Shown piece by piece: positions 1,732 through 19,173 of a stretch of 64,000 nt of DNA. The translations under genes and the position numbers were made by a program. How positions within the stretch are numbered: position 1 is the first letter of the stretch; each line of letters begins with the position of its first letter. The DNA comes from Candidatus Omnitrophota bacterium. GTDB lineage: Bacteria > Omnitrophota > Gorgyraeia > Zapsychrales > Zapsychraceae. The stretch spans positions 260,876 through 324,875 of the forward strand of contig JAJDCB010000030.1 in the NCBI GenBank assembly GCA_029261065.1. The letters run 5' to 3'. Under the pieces are notes generated by a model, which ran no database searches, had not been told where the DNA came from, and saw only the letters and a program-made list of their open reading frames with translations.

Positions 1732-1820
1732 ATAAGAATAAATACGTTTGTTGTTGTGTATGATAGTTTTAATGCTTAATATTTAGTGTAATCTTAAAAA
1801 ATAAACATAGGGAGAATAGT

Positions 1821-2474
1821 ATGTTAAAAATTTATGGGGTTAGTTTATCAACACCGTGCAATAAAGTGAGATTTGTAGCAAATGCATTAGATTTAGATTA
1901 TGATTTTGTCGTTGTGAATATGTCGGAAGGAAAACATAAATCGGAAGAGTATCTAGAGTTGCATCCAGCGGGTAAAGTTCCTGTTATTGATGATGAGGGG
2001 TTTGTTTTATTTGAAAGTAATGCGATTATTAAATATTTGAATGAAAAAAATAATGCTGGTTATTATCCAACAGAGCATCGACAACGAGCTATTGTTGATC
2101 AATGGTTAGATTTTTCGAGTCAACATGTGGGGGCGGCAATGAATAAGGTGTTTTTTAATCGGATACTTGCCCCTAAATTTCAAATGGAGGTAGACGCGCA
2201 ATCGTTAAAAGATGGAGAAAAATTTTTACAGAATTTTTTACCGGTGATACATACACAACTAGGAAGACATAAATATCTGGCAGGTGCTGAGTTAACTTTA
2301 GCGGATTTTAATTTATTGGCTGTTCTTGATCCTGCTGAAGTTAGTCAAATTGATTTAACTCAGTTTGATCATATAACGAGATGGCGCGACGAGCTTCGAG
2401 ATAAAGGGTTTTATAAACAGTGTTTTAATAATAGCAATTATACTGAAATGTTAATGGCGATGGCAAAAGAATAG
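1821..2474 (+). CDS. Glutathione S-transferase family protein
   Basis: N-terminal thioredoxin-like GST fold ('KVPVIDDEGFVLFESNAIIKYL'), length 217 aa, C-terminal alpha-helical GST domain. RBS 'agggaga' upstream. Confidence 0.7.
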   Translation: MLKIYGVSLSTPCNKVRFVANALDLDYDFVVVNMSEGKHKSEEYLELHPAGKVPVIDDEGFVLFESNAIIKYLNEKNNAGYYPTEHRQRAIVDQWLDFSSQHVGAAMNKVFFNRILAPKFQMEVDAQSLKDGEKFLQNFLPVIHTQLGRHKYLAGAELTLADFNLLAVLDPAEVSQIDLTQFDHITRWRDELRDKGFYKQCFNNSNYTEMLMAMAKE

Positions 2475-2514
2475 GTTTTTTACTGGATTACGTGTTTTAA
2501 AAAAGCGTGGGACT

Positions 2515-4140
2515 TTATTCAGAAGAAGGAGATTCTGGCATTTCAAAGGGAAGTATAATGCTTACGGTGGTACCTTGGTTTTTCACACTTGTAATACGAA
2601 TTTTTCCTTTATGGCTTTCAATAATGCTTTGCGCAATTGATAGGCCTAAACCAGTATGTTTTTCTTTTGTGCTGTAAAATGGATCAAAAATTTTATTCAA
2701 TTCTTTATCGGGGATGCCACAGCCCGTATCTTTAACATGAATTATAAAGTAAAATGATGTTTGTTCCGTCTCAATCGTTAAATTCCCGCCCCTTGGCATT
2801 GCTTCCAAAGCATTGATGATAATGTTAACTATTGTTTGATTGATTTGATCTGGGTCTATCACTAGATTAACAAATTGTTTATCATCAAATTTTTTATGCA
2901 CCTCAACACCATTTTCTAATATGTTGTTTTTTAAAATTACCAGAGTACTGTTTATTAATAATACAATATTAGTATTTTTTGTCGTTAAAGGGGTTGGGTT
3001 GCTGTATTGATTGAGATGATGAAGCAAACTGTTAATGCGTTGGACCTCGTTTGCGAGAACAGTAGAAAATTTATTTAGAAATTCTTCATCATGTAATTTT
3101 TTAGGAAGATAATGACAATATCCATTGATGGCCGTCAGGGGGTTTTTTATTTCATGAATTATGCTATTGGTTAATGTGGCCAACGTTTTATATCTTTCCG
3201 CTTGAGCGGCTTCTTTCATGAGAAGCTCATTTTGTTCTGCAATTTGAGAAAAACTTCCTTTAAAGAAGTATCGATCAATAAGTGATTGAATAACATTTTT
3301 CAGAGGGATAAAAATTAAGGCAATCGTGGCCATGGCAATCGTTGAACTTACCAAGGATTGGTAACCTAAAATATCTTGGAAAATACGCTCTAGAATGTAA
3401 ATGGTCACAAAATAAAGAATGGTAATGCATGTGATAAGGCTGGAATAAACAAGTCCTTTTTTAAGGATGATATTTATATTAAAAAGTTGGTATCTAAGTA
3501 TAGCGTAAGCAAAGAGAAGGACATAAATGGCTACGAAAATGTTACCAACGGGAGGAATAGGGATGTCAAACCAGAGGGGGAAGTTTGTAAAACCTCCCGA
3601 ATAACTAATTAAGGAGCCAAAAAGAATATATCTGATTTGGTTGCGTTTGATGGGGTGCGTTGTTTTATATTCTTTGGAAAGCAATATAACGCTATAAATG
3701 ATTAAAAGGGCGTAAAGAATAACGTATATTAAGTAGTACTTTCCTGCTGTTGGCCAAAACTCAAACATCATTCTAGGTTTAACATCTTTCACAAAGAGAG
3801 GGGTGAAATTTAATATTAGAAATCCGAGACTTACGACGTATCCAATTAGGATTTTTACACGGTGTTTTTTGTAATTTCCAATTAAGTTAACACAAAAATG
3901 AAAATAGGTGTTTGGGATGAAGATAGCTCCTGTCATTAAGGCGCGGCACCAGAAAAGGGCTGTCGTCTCGGTCTTAGAAAGTTGCCATATAAAATAGCAT
4001 ATTGACCAAATAAAAATAGAGGATGCGAAGTAAAAAAAGGATCGGTTTAAAGAAGATTTTGGGTTTTTGGAAAAAACAAAGATTCCTAAAATTAATGATA
4101 CCAAAGTATTGAGTAAAGCGCTGAAAGGGAAATACCACAT
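2515..4140 (-). CDS. Membrane sensor histidine kinase, paralog of 133..1731 (7TM sensor, HisKA, HATPase_c)
   Basis: Long blocks near-identical to the first HK ('ALFWCRALMTGAIFIPNTYFHF', 'FTNFPLWFDIP', 'ILRYQLF', 'IDRYFFKGS', 'HEIKNPLTAI'). HATPase motifs 'DTGCGI' and 'HTGLGLSIA'. Confidence 0.8.
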   Translation of the reverse strand: MWYFPFSALLNTLVSLILGIFVFSKNPKSSLNRSFFYFASSIFIWSICYFIWQLSKTETTALFWCRALMTGAIFIPNTYFHFCVNLIGNYKKHRVKILIGYVVSLGFLILNFTPLFVKDVKPRMMFEFWPTAGKYYLIYVILYALLIIYSVILLSKEYKTTHPIKRNQIRYILFGSLISYSGGFTNFPLWFDIPIPPVGNIFVAIYVLLFAYAILRYQLFNINIILKKGLVYSSLITCITILYFVTIYILERIFQDILGYQSLVSSTIAMATIALIFIPLKNVIQSLIDRYFFKGSFSQIAEQNELLMKEAAQAERYKTLATLTNSIIHEIKNPLTAINGYCHYLPKKLHDEEFLNKFSTVLANEVQRINSLLHHLNQYSNPTPLTTKNTNIVLLINSTLVILKNNILENGVEVHKKFDDKQFVNLVIDPDQINQTIVNIIINALEAMPRGGNLTIETEQTSFYFIIHVKDTGCGIPDKELNKIFDPFYSTKEKHTGLGLSIAQSIIESHKGKIRITSVKNQGTTVSIILPFEMPESPSSE

Positions 4141-4322
4141 AACTATACTCCAATTTTTAAGTATGTAAGATAGTTTTTATTATAACGAAATGAGATTGCT
4201 TTAGAAAGTAAAAATGCATTTAGAATAAAAAGGCATTATATTAATTTTACTAGAAAAATTAACATTGTTTAGTATAATCATCAATAAATTAAAATGAATT
4301 TTCAAAATGGGGGAGGATTTAT

Positions 4323-5009
4323 ATGCAGAGAATTACGACATTGATGTTGATAATGTTTTTTTTATGTATGAGTGTTACAGGTTATACAGAACAAAAAGGG
4401 GGAGACCATCAGGGGGAGGCCTTGGCCGTTATGAAAGAGGCTCTTCAAAAAAGAATAAGAGTTACTGGAACGTTGGATTTGTTTGATGTTAAAGCGGATC
4501 GAGTGAGAAATTTGAGAAAAATTGAATTTAAAGAAGAGGTCGTTAATGATGGCGACCAATTGGTTGGTATGATGACATGTAAGGATATTGCGACAAATGA
4601 CATGGTTTGGATCGAAGCGGTAGTTCTTGCTAAAAAGGAAGAGGCTTTAAGTTTTAAGGAATTCCGGATCGCAAAAATTGATAAATTTGAAGATAGTAAA
4701 GCGGAGATTTTTGAGAAGAAGAATGTTACTAGGGAGGAGTTGATCACGACTATGACATCTTATGTTGAGCAAAAATCAAAATTTACGAAAAGTTTTGATT
4801 TATACGACGAAAAAGCAAGTAAACTGCGTCACTTAAAGCTAAATTCTTTTTCTGATAAAACGAGAGCCTTTGGGAGTTTGCATATTACTGAAGTTTTATT
4901 TAGTGATGTCGAAACGAATGAAACGCTAAAAATTGATATGACCGTTGAAAATAAAGCTGGTCAATTGAATGTAAAGAAAATAAAAATCAAAAGTGTTTTA
5001 CCTCAATAA
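4323..5009 (+). CDS. Hypothetical secreted protein with an internal tandem duplication
   Basis: Signal peptide 'MQRITTLMLIMFFLCMSVTG'. Two related ~90-aa halves ('LDLFDVKADRVRNLRKIEF...' and 'FDLYDEKASKLRHLKLNSF...'). GGGGAGG RBS 6 nt upstream of the ATG; TATAAT at 4273..4278. Confidence 0.6.
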   Translation: MQRITTLMLIMFFLCMSVTGYTEQKGGDHQGEALAVMKEALQKRIRVTGTLDLFDVKADRVRNLRKIEFKEEVVNDGDQLVGMMTCKDIATNDMVWIEAVVLAKKEEALSFKEFRIAKIDKFEDSKAEIFEKKNVTREELITTMTSYVEQKSKFTKSFDLYDEKASKLRHLKLNSFSDKTRAFGSLHITEVLFSDVETNETLKIDMTVENKAGQLNVKKIKIKSVLPQ

Positions 5010-5198
5010 TTTTGAAACAAGATTAAGGTATGTATAACCTTTTTAAACTTTTAGGGTGTTTCAAAATTTCTTACCTATGTGAGTGCCTAAATTATAAGAT
5101 TTTTCATAAAATATCTGTTTATCAGTTGTAATAAGATTCTGATAATGTAAAATGTGATATGTATATTACTATTAAATAATATTATATATTTTATATTT

Positions 5199-7610
5199 AT
5201 GAAAAATAATCAATTTAAATTATCTTTTCCTTCCTTAATAATTTTCAGTCTCACACTCTGCACAATGTTGTGTTTTCTTGCCGTTTTATGGCAAATGACA
5301 CAGCTTACCTTCAGAATTGAAACAGAATTGCTCAATCATCACTCCTTTTTAGTCATGGAATCTTTTTTACAACAATTTTCAAAGTTGATTTTTACAGTCA
5401 TTTTTTTATTATGGCTAGGTTTAGTAAACATGCTTTTTGTGGTTAAAAGAAGTAGAGAGATGCGTAAAAAACTTTTTAACAAAACGTCTATAGTTAACTT
5501 ATTACATAAAGTGACCAGAGCGGCAAATGAGTCTAAGAGTAGTAACGAGGCGTATAAAGAAGTTTTAGAAATTATTTGTAACTATATGAAATGGCCGATT
5601 GGACACGTTTATGTGCAAAGTAGAAAGAATATGCAAGTCATGGTTTCTGCCGGTATTTGGCGCTCCCCGGAATCTCGGCCTTACCAAAAGTTTCGAGATG
5701 CTTCAAATAAAATAAAATTTAAAGAAGGAGAGGGGGTTATTGGTCTTGCGTTTCAAACGAAAAAGCCGGTTTGGATAAAGGATGTGGATAGGGATCAACA
5801 ATTTAAACGTGCGGCTTTAGCACAAAGCGAAGGATTTAAATCTATCTTAGTTTTTCCTGTCTTGGTAGGAAATCAAGTTGTTTCAATTTTAGAATTTTAT
5901 AGTCGTGAGAGTTGTGAAGAGGGTGATGAGATTGTTAAGTTGATGGGAAATGTAGGAGTCCAGTTGGGGCGGGTTATTGAGCGAGAACGCGCCTCCGAGC
6001 AATTAAAAAATGAGAAAAACATAGCTGTACAGTTAGGAAAGAAAGCCCTGCTTTCTTCGGAAGCAAAGAGCACTTTTTTAGCAGGAATGTCACATGAAAT
6101 TCGTACGCCGATGAATGCGATTTTAGGATTTAGTGACTTATTAACGCGCACAGAATTAGATGAGACTCAATTTAAGTACATTCAAACCATTCAATCGAGT
6201 GGAACGTTATTGATGAGCATTATTAATGATATTTTGGATTTCTCAAAATTTGAATCAGGTAAAATGCAATTAGAATCCATTAATTTTAATATAGAATATT
6301 TAGTTCATGATGTTTTTAAGATGGTGATGGAGAGGATTGCCAATAAACCGATCGATACTTTTGTAGACATAGCAGAGGATGTTCCTCGGTATCTTTTGGG
6401 AGATCCAACAAGATTAAGACAGGTTTTTCTGAATTTGTTGGGAAATGCAATTAAATTTACGAGTGATGGAGAGATAGGCGTTATTATTCGAAGAAACAAT
6501 GCCCTTGTTTCGGAGGATAATATTGGTTTGTTATGTATTGTCAAAGATACGGGGATAGGGGTTTCTGAAGATAAACATCGTTTAATATTTGAGTCTTTTA
6601 GTCAGGCAGATCAGTCAACAACGAGAAACTTTGGCGGTACAGGTTTAGGCCTTACTATATGTAAGTCCATTGTTGAGGCTATGGGTGGCAGGATTCGCAT
6701 TGAGTCGACAGCAAATGTGGGAAGTAAATTTATTTTTGAAATTATTTTGCCAAAGGGTAAGTCATTGACAGAAAGTGAAATTTATCCTCTTTCGTTAGAC
6801 CAAATTAAGAATAAAAAAGTAGCAATCGTTGAAGATAACGACAAAAATCGTGAAATTTTGATTAATTATTGTGAGCAAATTGGCATGGATGTTGTTTTTG
6901 TCGCAAAGAGTGGAGAATCATGTTTACAAAAATTAGATAGTATGGCATCGATTTGTGTTTTCCCTGATGTTTTACTGACGGATATGCTTATGCCTGGAAT
7001 GGATGGCTATGCATTGATAGATAAAATTAGAAAGAATGATAATTGGAAAAAGCTTCGTTTTGTTGCTGTTAGTTCAGATGCTCGTGTGGGAATCACAAAA
7101 GAGGCTCAGGAAAAAGGCTTCCATGGTTTTCTACCTAAACCAATTATCAGAGATGAATTGAAAAATGTGATTGCTGTTGTTTTGGGTGATCAAAGAGAAA
7201 AGAAATCTATTATTACACGTCATAGTGCCGAGGAGATGCATTGCAAAGGGATTAAAGTTTTGGTCGCAGAAGATAGCTTTCCCAATCAGGAATTAATGAA
7301 AGCTTATTTTAAAAATCTTGGTTGTGATGGTGAGTTTGCTGAAAATGGTGCCGAGGCCATTGAGATGATTAAGAAAAATTCTTATGATCTTTGTTTTATG
7401 GATTTACAAATGCCAGTTATGGGCGGGATAGAAGCCACTCTAAAGATTAGAAAAGACATTTCCAAAGAGCTTCCTATTATTGCTTTAACGGCAAATGTTA
7501 TGAAAGAAGCTTACGAGAAATGTTTAAAAGCTGGTATGAATGACTTCTTGCCAAAGCCCGTTGATATGGAATCTCTTAAAAAGAAAATTGTTGGGGTTGT
7601 TAAAAATTAA
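5199..7610 (+). CDS. Hybrid sensor histidine kinase (TM, GAF, HisKA, HATPase_c, two receiver domains)
   Basis: H-box 'MSHEIRTPMNAILGFSDLL'. ATP-lid 'DTGIGV...GGTGLGLTICK'. Two REC domains with the conserved Asp ('LLTDMLMPGMDG', 'CFMDLQMPVMGG'). Track start 5154 is probably too far upstream; the ATG at 5199 ('MKNNQF') precedes the TM segment. Confidence 0.8.
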   Translation: MKNNQFKLSFPSLIIFSLTLCTMLCFLAVLWQMTQLTFRIETELLNHHSFLVMESFLQQFSKLIFTVIFLLWLGLVNMLFVVKRSREMRKKLFNKTSIVNLLHKVTRAANESKSSNEAYKEVLEIICNYMKWPIGHVYVQSRKNMQVMVSAGIWRSPESRPYQKFRDASNKIKFKEGEGVIGLAFQTKKPVWIKDVDRDQQFKRAALAQSEGFKSILVFPVLVGNQVVSILEFYSRESCEEGDEIVKLMGNVGVQLGRVIERERASEQLKNEKNIAVQLGKKALLSSEAKSTFLAGMSHEIRTPMNAILGFSDLLTRTELDETQFKYIQTIQSSGTLLMSIINDILDFSKFESGKMQLESINFNIEYLVHDVFKMVMERIANKPIDTFVDIAEDVPRYLLGDPTRLRQVFLNLLGNAIKFTSDGEIGVIIRRNNALVSEDNIGLLCIVKDTGIGVSEDKHRLIFESFSQADQSTTRNFGGTGLGLTICKSIVEAMGGRIRIESTANVGSKFIFEIILPKGKSLTESEIYPLSLDQIKNKKVAIVEDNDKNREILINYCEQIGMDVVFVAKSGESCLQKLDSMASICVFPDVLLTDMLMPGMDGYALIDKIRKNDNWKKLRFVAVSSDARVGITKEAQEKGFHGFLPKPIIRDELKNVIAVVLGDQREKKSIITRHSAEEMHCKGIKVLVAEDSFPNQELMKAYFKNLGCDGEFAENGAEAIEMIKKNSYDLCFMDLQMPVMGGIEATLKIRKDISKELPIIALTANVMKEAYEKCLKAGMNDFLPKPVDMESLKKKIVGVVKN

Positions 7611-9046: not shown

Positions 9047-9149
9047 ACATCTGTAAGTGATTCTTTTTATCAAAGGCTTGGAAGTCTAATGATATAAAAG
9101 TGTTGCATAATTTCTTGTTCCTATTAGAATAAAGGTTAAGGATAAATGC

Positions 9150-11123
9150 ATGAGTAAAACTCTTAAAATGATAAAGAAAGCCGGTCGTGTGGACCCATTA
9201 AAGGGAAAGGGGTCTGTTATTAACGAGTGTAGCTTGTTTTCAAAACAAGATATTTATCTTTTTAAAGAGGGAAAGCATTTTCGCCTTTATAATTTATTAG
9301 GATCTCATGCTACAGAGTATCAAGGAGTTACAGGAGTCTACTTTGCGCTTTGGGCTCCAAATGCCAAAAGTGTTTCTGTTATTGGCGATTTTAATGGTTG
9401 GAACAATACAACACACCCTTTATCAGCCCGTTGGGACTCCTCCGGTATTTGGGAGGGTTTCATTCCTCATATCAAAGATGGTGAAGTTTATAAATATCAT
9501 CTCATCTCGAAAAATAATAACTATTCCGTAGATAAAAAAGATCCTTTTGCATTTTATGATGAAATTGCACCTCGAACCGCATCACAAATTTGGACTGATA
9601 CGTATACATGGTCTGATAAAGAATGGATGAAGGAGCGTGGCGTTCATAATTCATTGGATGCTCCTATGGCAACATATGAAATGCATCTTGGTTCATGGCG
9701 AAGAAATGCGCAACGTGGTGATGATTATTTGTCTTATAAAGAGCTAGCTGTTGATTTGGTTAAATATATTAAAGAGATGGGATATACTCATCTTGAGTTT
9801 TTGCCGGTTATGGAACACCCCTTTTATGGCTCCTGGGGATACCAGACTGTAGGTTATTTTGCTCCCACAAGTCGTTATGGCCCTCCAGAAGATTTTAAGT
9901 ATCTTGTAGATCAATGTCATCAAAATGAAATTAGTGTTATTCTTGATTGGGTTCCTTCGCATTTTCCATCAGATCAACACGGGCTTTCTTATTTTGACGG
10001 CACTCATTTATATGAGCACGCCGATCATCGTAAAGGATTTCATCCGGATTGGAAAAGTCAAATTTTTAATTATGGTCGTGCTGAGGTTCGAGAATTTCTA
10101 ATCTCGAATGCTTTGTTTTGGTTGGATAAATATCATGTCGATGGACTTCGTGTCGATGCGGTGGCTTCGATGTTGTATTTAGATTATTCTCGTAAATATG
10201 GAGAATGGTTGCCTAATGAGACAGGTGGTAATGAAAATGTAGAAGCGATAGAGTTTTTAAAGGAGTTAAATGCGAATGTGTATAAAAACTTTCCTGATGT
10301 TCAAATGATAGCTGAGGAGTCAACCGCGTGGAGTGGTGTCTCGCGACCTGTAGATCATGGAGGTCTTGGATTTGGCATGAAGTGGAATATGGGTTGGATG
10401 CATGATAATTTAAAATATTTTGCTAAAGATCCAATTCACCGCAAATATCATCATCATGAATTAACGTTTAGTTATCTCTATACCTTTACAGAGAATTTTG
10501 TTAATGCTTTGTCTCACGACGAGGTTGTTCACGAGAAAGGTTCATTGCTTTCAAAGATGCCAGGAGATGATTGGCAGAAATTTGCCAACCTTAGGCTTTT
10601 ATACGCTTATATGTATGCTCATCCAGGAAAAAAACTTTTGTTTATGGGCTGTGAGTTTGCCCAATGGGATGAATGGGATCATGAAAAGAGTTTAGATTGG
10701 CATTTACTTGAGCATGCCCCTCATCAAGGTGTTCAGCAGTTAGTTAAAGATTTAAATGCGTTATATAAAACCAATCCTGCGTTATATCAATATGATTTTT
10801 CATCAGAAGGTTTTCAGTGGATTGATGGTGATAATAGTGATCAAGGAGTTATTTGTTTTGTGCGAAAGGGTAAGGATGCTAAGAAATCTATTGTTGTTGT
10901 TTGTAATTTGACGCCGGAAACTTATCACGATTATCGTATTGGAGTGCCGCATGCCGGTCAATGGAAAGAGTTGTTAAATAGTGATGCTAAGGAATATGGA
11001 GGGAGTGGCCAAGGAAACTTAGGGGTAAAAAAATCTGATCAAATTGCTTGGCATGGACAAATAAATTCGGTATCATTATCTATTCCGCCGTTAGGAATAT
11101 TATTTTTAAGTGCAAAGAATTAA
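9150..11123 (+). CDS. glgB: 1,4-alpha-glucan branching enzyme (GH13)
   Basis: Canonical GlgB blocks 'DGLRVDAVASMLYLDYSR' and 'EESTAWSGVSRP', CBM48-like N-terminus, 657 aa. Confidence 0.9.
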   Translation: MSKTLKMIKKAGRVDPLKGKGSVINECSLFSKQDIYLFKEGKHFRLYNLLGSHATEYQGVTGVYFALWAPNAKSVSVIGDFNGWNNTTHPLSARWDSSGIWEGFIPHIKDGEVYKYHLISKNNNYSVDKKDPFAFYDEIAPRTASQIWTDTYTWSDKEWMKERGVHNSLDAPMATYEMHLGSWRRNAQRGDDYLSYKELAVDLVKYIKEMGYTHLEFLPVMEHPFYGSWGYQTVGYFAPTSRYGPPEDFKYLVDQCHQNEISVILDWVPSHFPSDQHGLSYFDGTHLYEHADHRKGFHPDWKSQIFNYGRAEVREFLISNALFWLDKYHVDGLRVDAVASMLYLDYSRKYGEWLPNETGGNENVEAIEFLKELNANVYKNFPDVQMIAEESTAWSGVSRPVDHGGLGFGMKWNMGWMHDNLKYFAKDPIHRKYHHHELTFSYLYTFTENFVNALSHDEVVHEKGSLLSKMPGDDWQKFANLRLLYAYMYAHPGKKLLFMGCEFAQWDEWDHEKSLDWHLLEHAPHQGVQQLVKDLNALYKTNPALYQYDFSSEGFQWIDGDNSDQGVICFVRKGKDAKKSIVVVCNLTPETYHDYRIGVPHAGQWKELLNSDAKEYGGSGQGNLGVKKSDQIAWHGQINSVSLSIPPLGILFLSAKN

Positions 11124-11175
11124 ATTTAGATACATATAAATAATTTGTTTCTTTATTTTCTACAAGGAGGATGAC

Positions 11176-11508
11176 ATGAAAGATAAAGTCATTGAAGCAG
11201 CTGGGAAAACGTGGCAGTTTCTAGGCACCAACGGTGAAACTGATGTTAAGTCATTAAGTAAGGGTGTTAAAGAAAAAGAAGAAGTTGTTTACCAGGCGCT
11301 TGGTTGGTTAGCGAGAGAAGATAAGGTTGATTACTCGACGAAGGGAAGTAAGATATTTGTTTCTCTTATTCAGTCAGAGCTTGATACGTTTCGTCAAACA
11401 TTTGGTGAGACACAGAAGAAAGAAACAAAAAAAGAAACATCGCCCGTTGTTCGTCAAAAAGCTAAACAGCCAAGAGTAAAAAGAAGAGCTGCCAAAACAC
11501 GGATGTAA
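11176..11508 (+). CDS. Small winged-helix (DUF2582-like) protein with a Lys-rich tail
   Basis: 'AGKTWQFLGTNGETDV...VYQALGWLAREDKV' resembles the short wHTH family. RBS 'caaggagga' upstream. C-terminus is K/R-rich. Confidence 0.45.
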   Translation: MKDKVIEAAGKTWQFLGTNGETDVKSLSKGVKEKEEVVYQALGWLAREDKVDYSTKGSKIFVSLIQSELDTFRQTFGETQKKETKKETSPVVRQKAKQPRVKRRAAKTRM

Positions 11509-11541
11509 GAGATTAAATTAAAACAATGATTTCGAGACTTA

Positions 11542-13446
11542 ATGGCCAATCAATTTATTTGTATTCACGGACATTTTTACCAACCTCCCAGGGAAAATCC
11601 TTGGTTAGGTGTTATTGAACCCCAAGCATCTGCTTATCCCTACCACAATTGGAATCAACGCATTACAGATGAGTGTTATGCTCGTAATGCTGCCTCTAGA
11701 ATTCTAGATGCCGATCAGCGTATTAAACACATAGTTAATAATTATTCTCAAATAAGTTTTAATTTTGGTCCTACCCTTTTATCTTGGTTAGAGAAATTTT
11801 CAAATCATACCTATCAATCCATTCTTGATGCTGATCGATTAAGTCAAAAAAGATTTTCTTCTCACGGCTCTGCTTTGGCTCAAGTTTATAATCACATGAT
11901 TATGCCCTTAGCTAATAAAAAAGATAAGATGACTCAAGTTGTTTGGGGATTGCGTGATTTTGAACATCGCTTTAAACGAAAAGCAGAAGGGATGTGGCTT
12001 GCTGAATTAGCTGTTGATGAAGAAACGCTTGAGTGTTTGGCTTGCGAAGGTATTTGTTTTACCATTCTTTCACCGCGTTCTGCTAAAAGTATAAAAATGA
12101 TCGACCAAGATACTGCCTGGAAATCTGTCGATGAAGAATCGTTGGATATTACGATGCCTTATTTATGTCGTCTTTCATCGGGTAGGGAGATAGTTATATT
12201 CTTTTATGACGGTAAAAGATCATTAGAAGTTGCCTTTAAAGGATTGCTGAATAATGGCGAGTATTTTTCGGAGCGTTTATTGGACGGGTTTGACAGTACT
12301 TATAAAAAGCCTCAACTTATCCATATTGCAACGGATGGTGAATCATATGGACATCATCACAAATTTGGTGATATGGCTTTGGCGTATTGTTTATATCATA
12401 TCGAGAAAGAAAGTTTAGCTAGAATTGTAAATTATGGTCAATTTTTGGAGTTATGTCCTCCAAGCTATGAAGTCAAAATTGTGAATAACACTTCTTGGAG
12501 TTGTGAGCATGGGGTAGGGCGATGGGAACGCGATTGTGGATGTCATACGGGGGCTCAAGTGGGGTGGGATCAAAAGTGGAGAAAACCGTTACGAGAATCT
12601 CTTAATTGGTTGCGTGATCAATTAGGGGGTATTTATGAAAAAGAGATGTCCGTTTATGTGTCTGATGTTTGGAAAGCGCGCGACGAATATATTGAAGTTA
12701 TTTTAGATGCAACGGATAAACGTAAGAAAAAGTTTTTAAAGGCTATTAATGATAAACAAAAAATAAAGAATGATGAAAAAAAGATATGGTCGTTACTTGA
12801 AATACAATTAAATGCGCAATTGATGTTTACCAGTTGTGGCTGGTTTTTTGACGATTTAGCAGGGCTTGAGGCGACTCAGGTATTAAAATACGCAGCCCGT
12901 GCTATTGAGTTAGCACTTGATGTTAGTCGTGTTGATTTAGAACTTGCCTTTGTAAATCGATTAAAAAAAGCTAAGTGTAACGAAGCTGACATTGAAAGCG
13001 CTGCCCAAGTTTACGTAGAAGAAATACTACATCAAAATTTATGCTACTTATTAGGTCAAAAAGATCTAAATTTTTTACGTATTAGAAACATATTAGAGAT
13101 TATGAGCGGTTGGAATGTAGATCGTGATAAAGAGAACTTGCAATTTATCGCATCCCATAGAATTAGTGACATGGTAAATAACTTTTTCAAAAAAGATGAT
13201 TCTTTAGATCGCTTGTTAGCGATCGAATCTATGATTGAACAGTTAAATACCATAGACATCCAACTTGATTTATGGGAAACGCAAAATCTTTTTTTTAGAA
13301 TGGGCAAAGAACGTTATGATCAAAAAACAAAATCTCACCGAGGAACCGCTGAAAGTGAAAAATGGATTAAAGCCTATCAGCGGCTTGCCAAGTTGCTTTC
13401 CATTAAGATAAGTGGTGAACATAAAGTCGAACTCATAAAGGGATAA
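11542..13446 (+). CDS. Glycoside hydrolase family 57 protein (alpha-glucan processing; DUF3536-type C-terminus)
   Basis: N-terminal 'ICIHGHFYQPPRENPW' GH57 signature, 'EGMWLAELAVD' (catalytic Glu region), 'HIATDGESYGHHH'. Confidence 0.75.
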   Translation: MANQFICIHGHFYQPPRENPWLGVIEPQASAYPYHNWNQRITDECYARNAASRILDADQRIKHIVNNYSQISFNFGPTLLSWLEKFSNHTYQSILDADRLSQKRFSSHGSALAQVYNHMIMPLANKKDKMTQVVWGLRDFEHRFKRKAEGMWLAELAVDEETLECLACEGICFTILSPRSAKSIKMIDQDTAWKSVDEESLDITMPYLCRLSSGREIVIFFYDGKRSLEVAFKGLLNNGEYFSERLLDGFDSTYKKPQLIHIATDGESYGHHHKFGDMALAYCLYHIEKESLARIVNYGQFLELCPPSYEVKIVNNTSWSCEHGVGRWERDCGCHTGAQVGWDQKWRKPLRESLNWLRDQLGGIYEKEMSVYVSDVWKARDEYIEVILDATDKRKKKFLKAINDKQKIKNDEKKIWSLLEIQLNAQLMFTSCGWFFDDLAGLEATQVLKYAARAIELALDVSRVDLELAFVNRLKKAKCNEADIESAAQVYVEEILHQNLCYLLGQKDLNFLRIRNILEIMSGWNVDRDKENLQFIASHRISDMVNNFFKKDDSLDRLLAIESMIEQLNTIDIQLDLWETQNLFFRMGKERYDQKTKSHRGTAESEKWIKAYQRLAKLLSIKISGEHKVELIKG

Positions 13447-13447
13447 G

Positions 13448-15235
13448 ATGGAAGATCATATGTTAACAGGTTTAGCCAGTATAATATTGCTGGGTATTGG
13501 AGCGCAGTGGTTGGCGTGGCGTTTGCGTTTTCCATCCATTTTATTTTTACTTATTTTTGGGTTTTTAACAGGTCCAATTCTTGGATTCTTAAACCCCGAT
13601 GTCCTCTTTGGTGAACTTCTTCATCCTTTAGTTTCTATTTCTGTTGCCATCATTCTTTTTGAAGGTGGTCTCACCTTAAAATTGTCTGAACTTCATGATA
13701 TCGGGCATGTCATAAGAAATCTTATTACCGTGGGCGCATTAGTCACATGGGGTATTGCGGCTGTGAGTGCTCATTTTATTTTAAATCTCAATTGGGAAAT
13801 CGCAATTCTTTTGGGCGCGATTGTTATTGTAACGGGCCCAACTGTTGTGGGCCCTTTGTTACAACATGTGAGGCCTGTTGCGCGTGTGGCGAACGTTTTA
13901 AAGTGGGAAGGGATTACCATTGACCCGGTTGGTGCGTTATTAGCTGTTTTGGTATTTGAAGGTATATTACTTGAGAAGCTGCATCTCGCGGGTGGACATA
14001 TTTTTCTTGGGATTTTTAAAACAATTGTGATTGGAAGTTTAACGGGAGTCATTTTTTCATGGTTTCTTGTCTTTTTATTAAAGCGCTATTTAATCCCTGA
14101 TTTTTTGCATGAAGCCGTAACGCTTATGTTTGTCATTGGATCTTTTGTGTTATCCAATCATTTTCAATCAGAATCAGGATTGTTAACAGTCACGTTGATG
14201 GGGATTTTCTTAGCTAATCAAAAGAAAGTTACCGTAGATCATATTGTTCATTTTAAAGAAAATTTACGTGTGCTTATTATTTCTAGTTTGTTTATTGTTT
14301 TAGCGGCACAGCTAAAACCCTCAGATTTGAGTATTATTAATTTGCAGAGTTTTGTTTTCCTTTTTATTCTCATTTTTGTTGCAAGACCTTTGTCTGTATT
14401 TATATCAACTTATGGTTCCGAATTAACGTGGCAGGAAAGAGTTTTTATGTGTTGGATGGCTCCTCGAGGGATTGTAGCTGCCGCCATATCATCTTTGTTT
14501 GGTTATCGTCTGATGATGAATGGCCAGCCTCAGACAGAATATTTGGTTCCGATGACATTTATGGTTATTGTGGGGACAGTGACTATTTACGGATTAACTG
14601 CCGTTCCTGTGGCGCGTTGGTTAAAAGTAGCTCGTTTGGATGATCAAGGTGTTTTATTTATTGGGGCACATCGTTGGGCTAGAAAAATAGCCAAGGCGTT
14701 ACAAACAGAAGGGTTCGATGTTCTTATTGTTGATACGAATCGTAATAATATTATTGCCTCACATAAAGAGGGGTTAAATACTTATTATGGAAGTATATTG
14801 GAGGAGCGCGTTTTGGAGGGGATGGAGTTAGATGGAATAGGAAGTGTTTTGGCAATGACGTCAAATAATGAAGTCAATTCTTTGGCTGTGATTAAATTTT
14901 TAAGACAATTTGGTCGAGCTAATGTTTATCAACTTCCTTCAGAGGTGACCGACAAAGAAAAGAGTAAAGAAATGACGGACCAACATCAAGGTCGCCATTT
15001 TTTTAATGAATCGAGTACTTATGTCCAATTAACGGAAAGTTTTGCTAAGGGAGCGGTTGTTGAGAAAATTTTATTAACGGAAGAGTTTGATTTTAAAGCC
15101 TTTCAAACATCTAGCGAAGGTAAATCAACACCTTTGTTTGTAATTAAAGATAAAAAGAATTTAAGCGTCTTTACAGTCGAACAACCCCTTTCTCCTCAAG
15201 CCGGGGATGAGCTTATTTGTTTAGTAAGTCAATAA
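13448..15235 (+). CDS. Na+/H+ (cation:proton) antiporter, CPA1/NhaP type, with C-terminal RCK/TrkA-N regulatory domain
   Basis: 12 TM N-terminal transporter domain. C-terminal Rossmann 'VLFIGAHRWARKIAKALQTEGFDVLIVD'. Starts 2 nt after the GH57 stop. Confidence 0.75.
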   Translation: MEDHMLTGLASIILLGIGAQWLAWRLRFPSILFLLIFGFLTGPILGFLNPDVLFGELLHPLVSISVAIILFEGGLTLKLSELHDIGHVIRNLITVGALVTWGIAAVSAHFILNLNWEIAILLGAIVIVTGPTVVGPLLQHVRPVARVANVLKWEGITIDPVGALLAVLVFEGILLEKLHLAGGHIFLGIFKTIVIGSLTGVIFSWFLVFLLKRYLIPDFLHEAVTLMFVIGSFVLSNHFQSESGLLTVTLMGIFLANQKKVTVDHIVHFKENLRVLIISSLFIVLAAQLKPSDLSIINLQSFVFLFILIFVARPLSVFISTYGSELTWQERVFMCWMAPRGIVAAAISSLFGYRLMMNGQPQTEYLVPMTFMVIVGTVTIYGLTAVPVARWLKVARLDDQGVLFIGAHRWARKIAKALQTEGFDVLIVDTNRNNIIASHKEGLNTYYGSILEERVLEGMELDGIGSVLAMTSNNEVNSLAVIKFLRQFGRANVYQLPSEVTDKEKSKEMTDQHQGRHFFNESSTYVQLTESFAKGAVVEKILLTEEFDFKAFQTSSEGKSTPLFVIKDKKNLSVFTVEQPLSPQAGDELICLVSQ

Positions 15236-15274: not shown

Positions 15275-16564
15275 ATGAAATTTTATACAGATCTTCATCT
15301 GCATTCTTTTTATTCCCGCGCCACAAGTAAAAATTTAAACCTCGAGCATTTGCATCTTTGGGCACAAATTAAAGGGATCGATGTTGTTGGGACAGCTGAT
15401 TTTGTTCATCCTGGTTGGATGAAAGAGTTGGAGCAGAAGCTTGAGCCAGCTGAAGAAGGTTTTTTTAAGTTAAAACCAAAATATGTTAAGACAACCCAAG
15501 ATCAAGTGCCTAAAGCATGTCGTGCCGATGTGCGTTTTACCTTAACCGTTGAGATATCAAATATTTACAAAAGATTAGATCGTGTGCGCAAAGTACACAA
15601 TCTTCTTTATGCCCCCCATTTTAAAGCAGCCAAAAAAATTCAATCTCGTCTTGATGCTATAGGTAATATTAAATCAGATGGACGTCCTATTTTGGGATTA
15701 GATTCCAGAGATTTGTTAGAGATTACATTAGAATCGGATCCATTAAGTTATCTTGTTCCTGCACACATTTGGACGCCTTGGTTTTCTGCGTTGGGTTCCA
15801 AGGGAGGATTTGATCGCATCGAAGATTGTTTTGGCGATCTAACCAAACATGTCTTTGCCGTTGAAACAGGATTATCTTCTGATCCGTTAATGAATTGGAG
15901 ATTAAAACAATTAGACCCTTATGTTCTTGTTTCAAATTCGGATGCGCATTCACCCGCTAAATTGGCGCGTGAGGCGACGATATTTGATACGGAATTCTCT
16001 TATAGGGGTATTTATAACGCATTATCTGATCCAAAGAATAAAGGATTAAAGGGGACTCTTGAGTTCTTTCCTGAAGAAGGGAAGTATCATTACGATGGTC
16101 ATCGTGATTGCAAAACAAGATTGCATCCGCAAGAAACAAAAAATCATCAAGGATTGTGCCCTGTTTGTGGCAAGCCCGTTACGGTTGGTGTTATGGCACG
16201 AGTTGAGGAGTTAGCGGATAGACCTGAGGGTCAAAAATCGAAACGATGGCGACCGTATTTTAATTTAATTCCATTGCCCGAGGTTATTGCATCAGCCCGT
16301 GGCGTTGTTGGCTCAAATGGAAAAGCTGTTCAAGCTGTATTTTTTCAATTGTTATCCGAATTAGGGAATGAGTTATATATTTTGCAAGATGCGCCAATCG
16401 CTGATATAGAACGTGTGGCAGGTGATATGGTGGCCCAAGGTGTTAAGCGTATGAGAGAGGGGAAAGTTGATATAAAAGCAGGTTTCGATGGGGAGTATGG
16501 AAAAATCAATTTGTTCACAGAACAAGAGCGTGTTAAGAAAGCTGGACAACTCGCGTTATATTAA
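15275..16564 (+). CDS. PHP-domain protein, endonuclease Q-like (TIGR00375-type)
   Basis: N-terminal 'YTDLHLHSFYSRATS' PHP metal-binding motif, 'NSDAHSP' later PHP motif, putative Zn knuckle 'CPVCGKP'. Length ~430 aa, similar to EndoQ. Confidence 0.55.
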   Translation: MKFYTDLHLHSFYSRATSKNLNLEHLHLWAQIKGIDVVGTADFVHPGWMKELEQKLEPAEEGFFKLKPKYVKTTQDQVPKACRADVRFTLTVEISNIYKRLDRVRKVHNLLYAPHFKAAKKIQSRLDAIGNIKSDGRPILGLDSRDLLEITLESDPLSYLVPAHIWTPWFSALGSKGGFDRIEDCFGDLTKHVFAVETGLSSDPLMNWRLKQLDPYVLVSNSDAHSPAKLAREATIFDTEFSYRGIYNALSDPKNKGLKGTLEFFPEEGKYHYDGHRDCKTRLHPQETKNHQGLCPVCGKPVTVGVMARVEELADRPEGQKSKRWRPYFNLIPLPEVIASARGVVGSNGKAVQAVFFQLLSELGNELYILQDAPIADIERVAGDMVAQGVKRMREGKVDIKAGFDGEYGKINLFTEQERVKKAGQLALY

Positions 16565-16573
16565 AAGATAAAG

Positions 16574-18100
16574 ATGACTAGACCATCCTTTGATGTTAAT
16601 CCATCTCAACAACAAGCGATTAATCATAAGGCAAGTCATTTATTGATTGTGGCCGGTCCCGGCACAGGGAAAACGCACACCCTGGTTTTACGGATTATTT
16701 CAACTATTCCGCAGTTACAATCCAACCAAAAAATTTTAGCGATCACCTTTACAAATAAAGCCGCTCAAGAAATGCGTGAAAGGCTAATTAGTCATAATCC
16801 TTCCTTTATGGATAAGGTTACGATTGAAACTTTTCATAGTTTTTGTTTAAAATTCTTAAGACAACAAAAGATAGAGGATGAAGATTTCGAAATTATTTCA
16901 CCAGAAGAAATTTTAACTATCTCTGAGTCTATTTGGCCTAAAAAAACAATATCACAGAGAAATAAACTGTTACAAAAAGTTTCTCTTTGGAAGGCAAGTG
17001 ATTTTTCACAATCTCCTCCCGAGTACGTTCAACGGTATAATTCTTTATTGATCAAAAGAAAATGCATAGATTTTGATGATATCTTGTTAAGATTTTGGGC
17101 GCTACTATCAAAGCATAATGATGTGAAAGAACGGTTTCACGATCTCTACCGTTATATTTTTGTTGATGAATATCAAGATATTAATAAAATTCAGCATGCC
17201 GTTCTGAAATTGATGGTTGGAGAGGGTTGCTTATTAACAGCTATTGGTGATCCCCGTCAGGCGATATATGGTTTTCGTGGTTCGAATGCGAATTTGTTTG
17301 ATGCATTTCAAAATGATTTTCTTCCCACTAAAGTTATGTCATTGGACAAAAATTATAGGTCATCTTCGAATTTATTAAAGGCATCCTCTCAGGTTATAGC
17401 AAAGATGGCGGATGATAGTGATCCGCCTCTTGTTGCTCATATTCAAAAACAAGGACATCTTAGCGTTTATGAAGCATTAACCGAGAGTTCAGAAGCTGAA
17501 TACGTTGTTCATTCGATTGAAAAAATAGTAGGTGGAACAAGTATGTTTTCACAAGATTCTAAACGTGTTACGACACACGAAGATGGAGAGTTTGCTTTTG
17601 GCGATATTGCTGTGTTATATCGGTTAAATAGCCAAAGACATGCTCTAAAAAAAGCATTTGAGAGAAGTGGCATGCCATACCAAATTTATGGAAAGCAATC
17701 GAGTGAAGGGTATTATGACGAAATTTATCAAATGCGTCCAGAGCAGGTGGGCGGATTGGCGGGCGATAAAGTGTCTTTGATGACATTACACGCGGCAAAA
17801 GGTTTAGAGTTTTCAGTTGTTTTTATTGTGGGATGTGAAAACAATTTAATTCCTTTGCATATTGAAAACTTTGAATCCAATGTTGAAGAAGAGCGTCGTT
17901 TATTTTATGTAGGCATGACGCGAGCCAAACAGAGTCTTATCCTTACAAAGGCTAAAAACCGTTTTGTTTTTGGGAAAAAAGTAAGCAACGTAATCACCCC
18001 TTTCATTCATGATATAGAGGAACAATTGGAAAGGTATCAACAAAAGTCTTCGGCTCCTCAAAAGAAGAAAGAAGAGATTCAATTAACGCTTTTCGGTTAA
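16574..18100 (+). CDS. Short UvrD/Rep/PcrA-family (SF1) DNA helicase
   Basis: Walker A 'AGPGTGKTHTL', motif II 'VDEYQDIN', motif III 'GDPRQAIYGFRG', motif V 'TLHAAKGLEF', motif VI 'YVGMTRAKQSL'. Only 508 aa (no large 2B/C-terminal regions). Starts 9 nt after the PHP gene. Confidence 0.8.
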   Translation: MTRPSFDVNPSQQQAINHKASHLLIVAGPGTGKTHTLVLRIISTIPQLQSNQKILAITFTNKAAQEMRERLISHNPSFMDKVTIETFHSFCLKFLRQQKIEDEDFEIISPEEILTISESIWPKKTISQRNKLLQKVSLWKASDFSQSPPEYVQRYNSLLIKRKCIDFDDILLRFWALLSKHNDVKERFHDLYRYIFVDEYQDINKIQHAVLKLMVGEGCLLTAIGDPRQAIYGFRGSNANLFDAFQNDFLPTKVMSLDKNYRSSSNLLKASSQVIAKMADDSDPPLVAHIQKQGHLSVYEALTESSEAEYVVHSIEKIVGGTSMFSQDSKRVTTHEDGEFAFGDIAVLYRLNSQRHALKKAFERSGMPYQIYGKQSSEGYYDEIYQMRPEQVGGLAGDKVSLMTLHAAKGLEFSVVFIVGCENNLIPLHIENFESNVEEERRLFYVGMTRAKQSLILTKAKNRFVFGKKVSNVITPFIHDIEEQLERYQQKSSAPQKKKEEIQLTLFG

Positions 18101-18111
18101 ATATTATTACT

Positions 18112-19173
18112 ATGAAAAATAATAAGTCGGGTTTTATATTGTTAGCCGTATTATGGGCTCTTGTGATATTGACGATGTTAGCTCTAAGTCTAGGACGTAG
18201 CACAAATATTGATTTGGCTTTGACCAAACATGCCATAGGAAAATCTAAAGCTAAATATTTAGCTTGGGCCGGTATTGCTTTCGCTGTTGAACAAATTCGT
18301 TTTGATTCACAAGATGATGATACAAAAAATCAAGATACGTTATATCAATGTGCCGTAACACTAGATGAAGATACAACGCTTGAGGATAGATTTAAAAATC
18401 ATTCATTGGAAAGTGGATATTTTGATATCGTGTATCCCTATGAGGAAAATGGGATTAGCTATCATGCTTATGGTATGCAGGATGAAGAAAGGAAAATTAA
18501 TATCAATACGTTAACACCTCAAAATGTAAAAGTTTTTGTTAAATTGTTAGAAGTTATAAGTGTTGATGAAGAAATAGCTCAAACTATAGCTTACGCTGTA
18601 TTAGATTGGAAGGATGAAGATATCAATCTGTCCCATGAACTCTACGGTGCAGAAGATGACTATTATCAAAGCGCTGAGGGGTCGTATAAATCTAAGAATG
18701 CACCTTTTGACTCGATTGAAGAATTGACACTTGTTCGAGGAGTGGATGCTGATATATTTAAAAACTTGCGAAACTTTATTACAGTTTACCCTCAAACAGG
18801 AAATTTGAAAATTAATTTTAATACAGCCTCATCATCCGTTTTGCTTGGACTTGCAAAATCGGTAAGTGGACCTTTAACAAATACGGAAGACTCTGATGCT
18901 GATTCGTTAGTTGAAAAAATTATAGAATATCGTCGTGGGGAAGATGGTACACCATTTACGAGGGATGATCGTTTAGTTGAACTTAACAAACTTCCCCTAA
19001 ATGCAAAGGAACGGGTGCTTTCTTTAGCCATGAATCAATATAAAACAAATAAATCTGAATTTATTCGTGTTCGGGTTAAGGGTGTGGAACGTACAAGAGA
19101 AACCCAATCCGTATTAGAGGCTGTTATTCGAAGAAGTGATTTAACTATTGTGGAGTGGTTACGGGAAAATTAG
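18112..19173 (+). CDS. GspK-like minor pseudopilin (type II secretion/type IV pilus-related), orphan
   Basis: N-terminus 'GFILLAVLWALVILTMLALSLGRST' typical of GspK. C-terminal helix-hairpin-helix-like 'LKINFNTASSSVLLGL'. No other gsp/pil genes nearby. Confidence 0.55.
   Translation: MKNNKSGFILLAVLWALVILTMLALSLGRSTNIDLALTKHAIGKSKAKYLAWAGIAFAVEQIRFDSQDDDTKNQDTLYQCAVTLDEDTTLEDRFKNHSLESGYFDIVYPYEENGISYHAYGMQDEERKININTLTPQNVKVFVKLLEVISVDEEIAQTIAYAVLDWKDEDINLSHELYGAEDDYYQSAEGSYKSKNAPFDSIEELTLVRGVDADIFKNLRNFITVYPQTGNLKINFNTASSSVLLGLAKSVSGPLTNTEDSDADSLVEKIIEYRRGEDGTPFTRDDRLVELNKLPLNAKERVLSLAMNQYKTNKSEFIRVRVKGVERTRETQSVLEAVIRRSDLTIVEWLREN

Follow-up and report, generated by a model that had tools for sequence, protein, structure and literature searches.

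An endonuclease Q gene and a short PcrA-like helicase gene in Candidatus Omnitrophota as probable halves of a bacterial excision-repair module

The gene pair

Two adjacent genes of a Candidatus Omnitrophota bacterium are described here, which are situated in a stretch of 64,000 nucleotides of contig JAJDCB010000030.1 (assembly GCA_029261065.1). The whole of this stretch is termed the window, and positions refer to it unless another locus is named. The first gene encodes a protein of the endonuclease Q (EndoQ) family, the second a superfamily 1A (SF1A) helicase related to PcrA, UvrD and Rep; the best matches of both proteins are found in Candidatus Omnitrophota assemblies. Most relatives encode the two as one fused protein, and the window displays the split form of this unit. 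The pair is most likely a DNA-repair module and not an anti-phage system. The two genes and the spacer between them are as follows.

15275–16564, + strand: EndoQ-family endonuclease gene, 429 amino acids (aa), ATG start, TAA stop at 16562–16564
16565–16573, no strand: intergenic spacer AAGATAAAG, 9 nucleotides (nt)
16574–18100, + strand: SF1A (PcrA/UvrD/Rep-like) helicase gene, 508 aa, ATG start, domains 1A, 1B and 2A only

The open reading frame coordinates confirm the 9-nt distance given in a preliminary description of this DNA. By itself the distance is uninformative, because the neighboring co-directional genes are equally tight: between glgB (9150) and a GspK-like gene (18112) all gaps are 1–52 nt, and the helicase gene is followed by the next gene after 11 nt. 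What places the pairing beyond chance is that other genomes conserve it. A promoter and terminator scan of the 9–20.5 kb region gave no site between the two genes, but it is uninformative because promoter-like sites are rarer in this region than in shuffled sequences.

By their coordinates the two open reading frames are in the same reading frame, with the TAA stop and three codons (AAG ATA AAG) ahead of the helicase ATG (positions 16562–16576), and one stop-codon read-through at this place would restore an EndoQ-helicase fusion. Programmed read-through was rejected as an explanation, because five of six cleanly separated split loci that were checked have the two genes in different frames; the shared frame is probably a coincidence.

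Conservation of the pair

When the window EndoQ was compared by HMMER with 1.84 billion cluster representatives, 3,826 clusters matched at E < 1e-3. The best 150 of these (50%-identity clusters) are 50%–69% identical to the window EndoQ, and 129 of the 150 are at least 900 aa long with the EndoQ part at the N-terminal end. All eight long clusters sampled have UvrD-helicase and UvrD_C domains C-terminal to the EndoQ part. No NCBIfam model covers this fusion; the fusions align to positions 2–649 of the 725 positions of the PcrA model, i.e. without the PcrA tail.

Genomes were scanned with one genome per GTDB species. The query was an alignment of the window EndoQ with ten relatives and the Pyrococcus furiosus enzyme, PfuEndoQ (alignment A1), and use was made of the pattern PAHIWTPW, a signature peptide of the helicase-linked EndoQ clade. 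At least 598 stretches encode a relative. Linkage was determined by open reading frame and BLAST analysis for the best 80 of these loci (species-representative genomes, more than 20 bacterial phyla), with the following outcome.

62 of 80 loci: helicase fused to EndoQ in one open reading frame (~1,050–1,240 aa when complete)
9 of 80 loci: helicase separate, directly downstream, same strand
1 of 80 loci: helicase 1.3 kb downstream of EndoQ
1 of 80 loci: contig end precludes a call
7 of 80 loci: no linked helicase (three Nitrospirota; one each of Thermodesulfovibrionales, Limisphaerales, Fibrobacterota and Desulfobacterales)

The 80 loci are from Omnitrophota, Latescibacterota, KSB1, Planctomycetota, Fibrobacterota, Chloroflexota, Myxococcota (Sorangium), Binatia, Acidobacteriota, Actinomycetota (Actinoallomurus, Streptomonospora, Kutzneria, Saccharopolyspora), Desulfobacterota (Desulfonema), Melainabacteria, Bacteroidota, Peregrinibacteria, Clostridia (Neglectibacter, Neomoorella), Nitrospirota, Elusimicrobia and Verrucomicrobiota. 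Among the carriers of a natural fusion, Desulfonema magnum 4be13, Sorangium sp., Saccharopolyspora and Neomoorella stamsii DSM 26217 are cultivable. The preliminary description had proposed conserved co-occurrence as a check, and had regarded a lack of adjacency in other genomes as evidence against its interpretation; with the helicase fused or downstream in 72 of the 80 genomes, the pairing is borne out. The order is constant in all linked loci: EndoQ is 5′ or N-terminal and the helicase is second. In addition, the percent identities of the EndoQ half and the helicase half to the window proteins co-vary (Pearson r = 0.79, n = 67).

All seven further Omnitrophota contigs keep the pair linked, with an 8-nt overlap of the genes in one and one to three small open reading frames between them in two. 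The small open reading frames seen between the genes in some Omnitrophota-type genomes (L093 8521–10370; L094 8295–8675; L007 6134–7014) comprise a 126-aa frame lacking a Pfam match, a trio of a 160-aa frame, a TfoX_N gene and a 320-aa frame, and a 176-aa frame with a cupin. At two other loci (L070 7528–9571 and L071 5974–8947) the helicase frame is split into two overlapping pieces, which a frameshift, a pseudogene or an assembly error could explain.

Among 129 flanking open reading frames of the EndoQ-helicase loci, no Pfam family occurs in more than three, and the flanking genes are mostly metabolic or housekeeping. The genes that flank the pair in the window (glgB, GH57, Na+/H+ exchanger, GspK, amidase, ABC) were sought in the 80 loci and no synteny was found. 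With flanking genes that differ from locus to locus, it is the pair that constitutes the conserved unit.

The EndoQ protein

The preliminary description took the first protein to be EndoQ-like on account of its DLHLHS motif and Zn knuckle, and this assignment holds. The protein matches TIGR00375 over the full model (positions 3–374, E = 4.6e-53, 181 bits), and its residues 5–416 align end to end with PfuEndoQ chain residues 5–385 (5zb8, E = 9.5e-50; 5zb8 and 7k30, ~1e-49). The layout consists of a PHP catalytic domain, a Zn-knuckle domain and a C-terminal helical domain (PF27218, MJ0043_C). The last is taken from a precomputed annotation; a local Pfam scan of the protein gave no match. Conserved motifs are listed below.

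15290–15307, + strand: PHP motif I DLHLHS, residues 6–11; metal ligands D6, H8 and H10 invariant in A1, equal to Pfu D6/H8/H10
15758–15781, + strand: PAHIWTPW, residues 162–169; P162, A163, H164, T167, P168 and W169 invariant in A1; H164 corresponds to PfuEndoQ H139
15932–15955, + strand: SNSDAHSP, residues 220–227, the most conserved EndoQ motif ("SDAH"); S220 to P227 invariant in A1
16100–16168, + strand: Zn knuckle H276-x2-C279...C295-P-V-C298-G; C279, C295, P296 and C298 invariant, H276 in at least 90% of sequences

The residues D6/H8/H10 and the S191–H194 motif have been described in the Pfu enzyme (PMC4357722). Window residues E93, H108, E197 and S222–H225 correspond to Pfu E76, H84, E167 and S191–H194 and are invariant in A1. 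PfuEndoQ H139 serves as a catalytic Zn ligand and also contributes to the lesion pocket, and the pocket residues H139, G169 and S171 are reported to exclude normal T and A (PMC8307549); the corresponding H164, G199 and S201 are also invariant. The first ligand of the Zn knuckle is His in the window EndoQ and Cys in PfuEndoQ, and all four ligands are present. Thus every catalytic and lesion-pocket residue of the P. furiosus enzyme is retained, and the protein looks catalytically competent. It is a member of a divergent bacterial subfamily. Proteins of this one 429-aa family are annotated variously as "DNA helicase UvrD/PcrA", "endonuclease Q family protein" and "hypothetical".

The helicase

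The second protein matches UvrD-helicase (PF00580, E = 6e-60) and UvrD_C (PF13361, E = 2e-42). Helicase motifs Q, I, Ia, II (DEYQD), III, IV, V and VI are all found, and the sequences recognized include Walker A GPGTGKT, DEYQD, GDPRQAIYGFRG, LMTLHAAKGLEF and VGMTRAK. An alignment of 115 homologues (alignment A2) was used for residue conservation and for an AlphaFold model. In addition to the motifs listed below, motif VI is invariant across the 115 homologues.

16652–16675, + strand: motif I/Walker A AGPGTGKT, residues 27–34; A27, G28, P29, G30, G32, K33 and T34 invariant
17165–17179, + strand: motif II DEYQD, residues 198–202; D198, E199, Q201 and D202 invariant
17246–17281, + strand: motif III GDPRQAIYGFRG, residues 225–236; G225, P227, Q229, I231, Y232, F234 and R235 invariant
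17696–17758, + strand: disordered loop of ~20 aa, residues ~375–395, in place of PcrA 2B (~384–553), from the phmmer alignment and the predicted local confidence (pLDDT)
17777–17812, + strand: motif V LMTLHAAKGLEF, residues 402–413; H406, K409, G410, E412 and F413 invariant

A near-perfect palindrome GGCGGATGATAGTGATCCGCC is present within the helicase gene at positions 17407–17427, with 7-bp GC-rich arms and a 7-nt loop. It appears on both strands in the terminator scan, and is probably due to chance because no proper T-run follows it.

The protein had been described as a UvrD-family helicase with SF1 motifs that is about 200 aa short. This is correct: with its 508 aa the protein falls ~215 aa short of PcrA/UvrD (720–730 aa). 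An alignment with PcrA (1pjr, phmmer E = 5.8e-68) pairs residues 8–374 with PcrA 12–383 and residues 395–486 with PcrA 554–646. The alignment stops at PcrA position 646 of 724, and the last ~70–75 aa of PcrA/UvrD, the C-terminal extension, have no counterpart. The helicase is thus short because the 2B domain is replaced by a disordered loop of ~20 aa and because the C-terminal tail of PcrA/UvrD is lost. The AlphaFold model with the 115 homologues has a pLDDT of 88.6 and a predicted TM-score (pTM) of 0.87, and pLDDT falls below 50 only at residues 376–395; a run on the single sequence gave a pLDDT of 35 and was set aside. In Foldseek the best Protein Data Bank (PDB) matches of the model are PcrA, UvrD and Rep (E = 1e-39 to 1e-33). 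The TM-score is ~0.8 by query length and ~0.64 by target length, and the lower value by target length is as expected because one target domain is absent.

The short spacing without 2B is common to 73 of 91 close homologues of the helicase. The short form is therefore a genuine variant that is inherited, and does not stem from misassembly. The extra length at the 2B position is about 0 residues in the Omnitrophota-type loci, in one Elusimicrobia locus and in one fused Melainabacteria protein. Elsewhere in the clade it varies continuously from 25 to 153 residues, mostly near 55–90 or near 100–153.

Rep and UvrD1 engineered to lack 2B gain helicase activity as monomers, and unbridled UvrD1-Δ2B is harmful in mycobacteria (PMC13646824, PMC6412110, PMC13238157). 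Because the autoinhibitory 2B domain is absent, the window helicase is probably constitutively active, and activity as a monomer is expected. Since the unbridled enzyme is harmful, a natural helicase of this type is presumably under some other control, which may be exerted by recruitment to the sliding clamp and/or to EndoQ and not by 2B-mediated dimerisation.

A neighbor-joining tree of helicase cores was made from 65 EndoQ-linked sequences and a set of outgroups (E. coli UvrD and Rep, Staphylococcus aureus and Tsukamurella PcrA, three other UvrD-like proteins, a Bacillus plasmid helicase and a Gabija-type helicase from a Yersinia plasmid). Here the EndoQ-linked helicases group together in a single clade, which is a sister group to PcrA/UvrD/Rep and is not nested inside it (bootstrap 51/100). 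Clustering with housekeeping PcrA/UvrD, which the preliminary description would have counted against its interpretation, is thus not seen, with weak support at the node. The Gabija-type helicase is a distant outgroup. Its locus (L090 1229–4893, Yersinia massiliensis plasmid NZ_CP028488.1) has an "AAA family ATPase" and an "ATP-dependent helicase" beside a Tn3 transposase and a recombinase, and looks to be of the Gabija type.

The helicase could be a general-purpose PcrA/UvrD, active in nucleotide excision repair (NER), mismatch repair and replication, that merely travels with EndoQ, so that the pair would not be a dedicated module. PcrA is indeed its best NCBIfam, PDB and fold match, the clade is a weakly supported sister of PcrA/UvrD/Rep, and there is no other UvrD-like gene within the 64-kb window. 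Against this, 62 of 80 genomes have it covalently fused to EndoQ in a fixed domain order. The EndoQ-linked family also lacks the PcrA/UvrD C-terminal tail and has a clamp motif that is absent from PcrA/UvrD/Rep, and the equivalog cut-off for PcrA is far above the helicase score (911 versus 349 bits). The general-purpose role is quite unlikely as a full account of the pair, and the EndoQ-linked helicase is likely distinct from housekeeping UvrD.

C-terminal tails of the clamp-binding type

Both proteins end in a peptide that resembles the binding motif for the β sliding clamp, for which the consensus is QL[S/D]LF and more generally QxxLF (PMC12309361).

16547–16561, + strand: predicted β-clamp-binding-type motif QLALY, EndoQ residues 425–429 (end ...GQLALY), from homologue tails
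18080–18094, + strand: predicted β-clamp-binding-type motif QLTLF, helicase residues 503–507, with basic linker PQKKKEE before the motif

The C-terminal end of the helicase is ...KKKEEIQLTLFG (QLTLF-G). A strict pattern Q[LM]x[LF]F is found within the last 12 aa of 99 of 120 EndoQ homologues and 94 of 120 helicase homologues, and of 78 of the 150 best cluster representatives, a set that contains many fragments. Internal 12-aa windows match at a rate of 0.06%. At the genome loci a looser pattern, Q[LMIV]x[LFIM][FLWYM] in the last 14 aa, is present in 48 of 56 complete fusions and in seven of eight split helicases. Ends of the QxxLF type are seen on all ten split EndoQs as well as on four standalone EndoQs (three Nitrospirota and one Thermodesulfovibrionales).

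Helicase residues Q503 and F507 stand out, with at least 90% conservation in A2, from an otherwise variable basic tail. In the fusions a (Q)xxLF-like peptide directly follows the EndoQ domain, with the Gln kept in 32 of 62, and then comes a linker of 24–132 residues. The PcrA, UvrD and Rep outgroups do not have a tail of this type. Archaeal EndoQ binds the clamp PCNA by a C-terminal PCNA-interacting peptide (PIP box) and is stimulated by it, and clamp-type motifs in bacterial EndoQ homologues have been remarked on before (PMC4858679). 

In six Desulfobacterota loci dnaN, the β clamp gene, is found 0.2–1.6 kb upstream of the EndoQ-helicase fusion in divergent orientation on the opposite strand (L025 3701–4819, L031 2–502, L046 3362–4492, L048 3304–4503, L056 3159–4295 and L059 3238–4416). 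These genomes are one related lineage and the six loci are therefore counted as one event, maybe a single inherited arrangement near the origin region. The two "DNA_pol3_beta" matches among the flanking genes do not belong to the open reading frames that follow the fusions in L014 and L030, both of which encode β-eliminating lyases.

Repair versus defence

The preliminary description left two alternatives, a lesion-processing repair module and a two-gene anti-phage nuclease-helicase system, and compared the short helicase to defence helicases such as GajB. An anti-phage pair of the Gabija or Nhi kind could, for example, cut uracil-containing or deaminated phage DNA. A nuclease with a helicase is a common defence architecture, the window helicase matches the PADLOC GajB models (best E = 5e-82), and Bacillus EndoQ has been suggested to act also on uracil-DNA phages, as relayed in a review (PMC8307549). 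These GajB matches are generic UvrD-family similarity, because PcrA scores higher both by profile model (349 bits versus 274 for the GajB model) and by PDB sequence (233 bits versus 62 for solved GajB). The 50 best fold matches do not include GajB, and EndoQ has no PADLOC match. The size of the helicase is that of a PcrA-like protein that has lost 2B and the C-terminal tail, and is not the mark of a defence class.

The surroundings of the pair also do not fit defence. A GajA/OLD-type partner is missing, the neighbors of the helicase being EndoQ and the GspK-like gene, and the varied housekeeping flanks give no defence-island signal. A tblastn search with EndoQ gave no match in 50,697 phage records, one match in 72,556 plasmid records (a standalone gene on a 733-kb Brevibacillus replicon) and one distant standalone relative in 2.9 million viral contigs. 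In the plasmid search with the helicase no relative above 33% identity was found. The viral-contig relative (L083 5752–7005, IMG/VR UViG_3300043540_000188) is 28% identical and has no helicase; it may be a virus-encoded or a host-flank PHP nuclease. Close relatives keep ~70% identity, consistent with stable inheritance and not with mobility, and tails of the clamp-binding type are a typical feature of proteins of replication and repair. A defence role thus finds no support and is considered most improbable. Of the earlier interpretation the family assignments and the repair module are retained, and the anti-phage system and the GajB analogy are dropped.

Neighboring genes

Upstream of the pair, at positions 9150–13446, there is a glycogen-metabolism cluster with a glgB-like branching enzyme (from its translation), a small DUF2582 winged-helix protein and a GH57/DUF3536 enzyme. 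It is followed by a Na+/H+ exchanger with a TrkA_N domain (13448–15235). At other loci none of these genes recurs beside the pair. All 2-kb bins of the window (1–64000) have a positive GC skew (0.08–0.29; GC content 32%–41%), and the genes examined at 9–24 kb are mostly on the + strand; together this fits one replichore with a strong strand bias.

Genes of the DNA-uptake or pilus type adjoin the pair in seven of 13 Omnitrophota-type loci, in five different arrangements. In the window the GspK-like gene (18112–19173) has a ComEA-type helix-hairpin-helix (HHH) motif and is 46% identical to the T2SSK gene of L092. That locus has T2SS J and K, PilM/N/O and a secretin near the pair (1–6993), L094 has two T2SSE ATPases (10352–12615), and in L093 the TfoX_N gene is situated between EndoQ and the helicase (9052–9366). 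The order LeuRS-EndoQ-helicase-ComEA-ComEC is seen at L008 5948–7308, L096 9929–11670 and L097 9830–11672; ComEA-ComEC near leuS may be an old synteny.

These neighbors raise the possibility that the Omnitrophota pair works with competence or type IV pilus-like machinery and cleans or cuts damaged environmental DNA at its entry. No such genes are present in the flanks from other phyla, however, and the figure of seven of 13 is a raw count. The clamp motifs, moreover, indicate chromosomal replication and repair. A role of this kind is very unlikely as the main function of the pair.

Proposed mechanism

The two genes may be regarded as two halves of one conserved bacterial excision-repair machine, with a probability of roughly 0.6. 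The best reading is a clamp-tethered "nick and peel" module. EndoQ would flip out a deaminated base (uracil, hypoxanthine or xanthine) or an abasic site, and nick the strand immediately 5′ of the lesion (dU, dI, dX or AP), leaving a 3′-OH. The SF1A helicase would load at this nick and translocate 3′→5′ on the intact strand, and in doing so would peel off the lesion-bearing 5′ end and displace EndoQ from its product. A clamp-bound polymerase would extend the 3′-OH and resynthesize the strand, and a flap nuclease or exonuclease together with ligase would complete the repair. By means of the clamp-binding tails both activities would stay on one β dimer, and in the split Omnitrophota version this tethering may replace the missing covalent link. 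UvrD acts in a comparable manner: once UvrC or MutH has incised the DNA, it unwinds from the repair nick and displaces both the cut strand and the nuclease. A helicase step has been drawn in one proposed EndoQ pathway (Shiraishi et al., PMC4357722).

The same module could also divide its labor otherwise. The helicase may serve mainly as a clamp-coupled translocase and move EndoQ along the DNA, ahead of the replisome or behind it, to scan for lesions, or it may strip a slow-turnover EndoQ from the nicked product, with strand removal left to Pol I-type displacement. The stimulation of archaeal EndoQ by PCNA points to a problem of turnover or recruitment (PMC4858679), UvrD-family monomers are processive single-stranded DNA translocases and protein-displacing motors (PMC13238157, PMC6158625), and clamp motifs on both EndoQ and the helicase fit such a role. 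The absence of 2B from the window helicase, on the other hand, fits a true helicase, given that deletion of this domain raises unwinding in Rep and UvrD1 (PMC13646824, PMC6412110). The sequence does not discriminate between the two modes; a translocase or turnover role in place of strand displacement is considered unlikely.

Several observations weigh against the nick-and-peel module. The window EndoQ is below the curated TIGR00375 cut-off of 326.6 bits, and the helicase is below the curated NCBIfam cut-offs for PcrA (349 against 911 bits), UvrD (295–308 against 965–1144) and Rep (300 against 951). The EndoQ tail, QLALY, has Tyr where the consensus has Phe. The clade of the helicase apart from PcrA/UvrD/Rep depends on a simple neighbor-joining tree with a bootstrap value of only 51, and the helicase may also serve other pathways. 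The helicase is not obligatory for EndoQ function, because seven of the 80 genomes have no linked helicase and the Brevibacillus EndoQ (the one Bacillus-type locus checked) is standalone. Finally, the specificity of the nuclease, the polarity of the helicase, its loading strand and the clamp binding are deduced from homology and motifs.

Relation to known systems

The closest characterized relatives of the nuclease are the EndoQ proteins of P. furiosus and Thermococcus kodakarensis (5zb8, 7k30). Full-length homology (E ~1e-49), the three-domain layout and the Zn ligands and pocket residues are shared, as is a C-terminal peptide of the sliding-clamp type (PMC4357722, PMC4858679). The window protein differs in being bacterial, in ~25 extra residues in the PHP domain, in the His as first Zn-knuckle ligand, and in its β-clamp-type QxxLF tail, which is not a PCNA PIP box. 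It is also coupled to a dedicated helicase, whereas none is mentioned for archaeal EndoQ in the EndoQ literature found.

Within bacteria the family also includes Bacillus EndoQ (B. pumilus EndoQ, B. subtilis YqxK; "endonuclease Q family protein"), and YqxK was enriched on abasic-site DNA (PMC10220248). Unlike the window gene, Bacillus-type EndoQ is standalone; the Brevibacillus copy is flanked by a NUDIX hydrolase gene and spoIIM, lacks a helicase and has no QxxLF tail. The identity to the window EndoQ is only ~31% over 59% of the query.

PcrA, UvrD and Rep are the best sequence and fold matches of the helicase and share all seven motifs and domains 1A, 1B and 2A with it. The window helicase has a basic linker and clamp motif in the place of the C-terminal tail, and without 2B it does not have the four subdomains of these proteins. 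With engineered Rep-Δ2B and UvrD1-Δ2B it shares 1A/1B/2A and a short linker that replaces 2B (PMC13646824, PMC6412110), but it is a natural and conserved variant.

Gabija (GajA-GajB) is also a two-gene system of a nuclease and a UvrD-family helicase of ~500 aa. GajA, however, is an OLD/TOPRIM ATPase nuclease, whereas the window nuclease is a PHP EndoQ, and the window pair is not on mobile elements. The logic of a lesion-directed nick, helicase-driven strand removal and resynthesis is shared with UvrABC-UvrD NER, MutL-UvrD mismatch repair and the "alternative excision repair" by UVDE or EndoV. In contrast to these, nuclease and helicase are here one unit or one polypeptide, and both have clamp motifs; a single incision 5′ of the lesion would be expected from the EndoQ module, not a dual incision.

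Significance

The view of the field is that EndoQ is archaeal with few bacterial homologues (PMC4357722, PMC4858679, PMC8307549), and the steps that come after the nick have been unsettled. The locus described here is a member of a large bacterial EndoQ clade that has its own helicase, usually in the same polypeptide. No description of an EndoQ-helicase fusion or operon was found in the literature, although a subscription journal or a database note could hold one. What appears to be new is EndoQ-initiated excision repair with a dedicated, clamp-tailed and, in this case, 2B-less helicase. The principle is not new, because nuclease-helicase coupling and clamp tethering are familiar themes. In practice these proteins are inconsistently annotated, and a curated model for the fusion does not exist.

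A wider picture can be drawn tentatively, with the odds somewhat against its holding in every part. EndoQ and a dedicated PcrA-like helicase would constitute an excision-repair pathway that is widespread among bacteria, with carriers in more than 20 phyla and at least ~600 species-level genomes. Incision and strand displacement would be performed by one fused protein or by two proteins, each with a QxxLF tail that docks it on one protomer of the β clamp dimer. The naturally 2B-less helicase of Omnitrophota would be constitutively active, and the recurrent DNA-uptake neighbors would point to quality control not just of resident DNA but also of incoming DNA.

The EndoQ-linked helicases are a natural experiment on the contested role of 2B, since this domain varies within one orthologous clade between full size and complete absence. 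For the EndoQ family, the linkage points to a downstream step, unwinding from the nick, and to the sliding clamp as the organizing platform of the pathway, and cultivable carriers of the pair exist.

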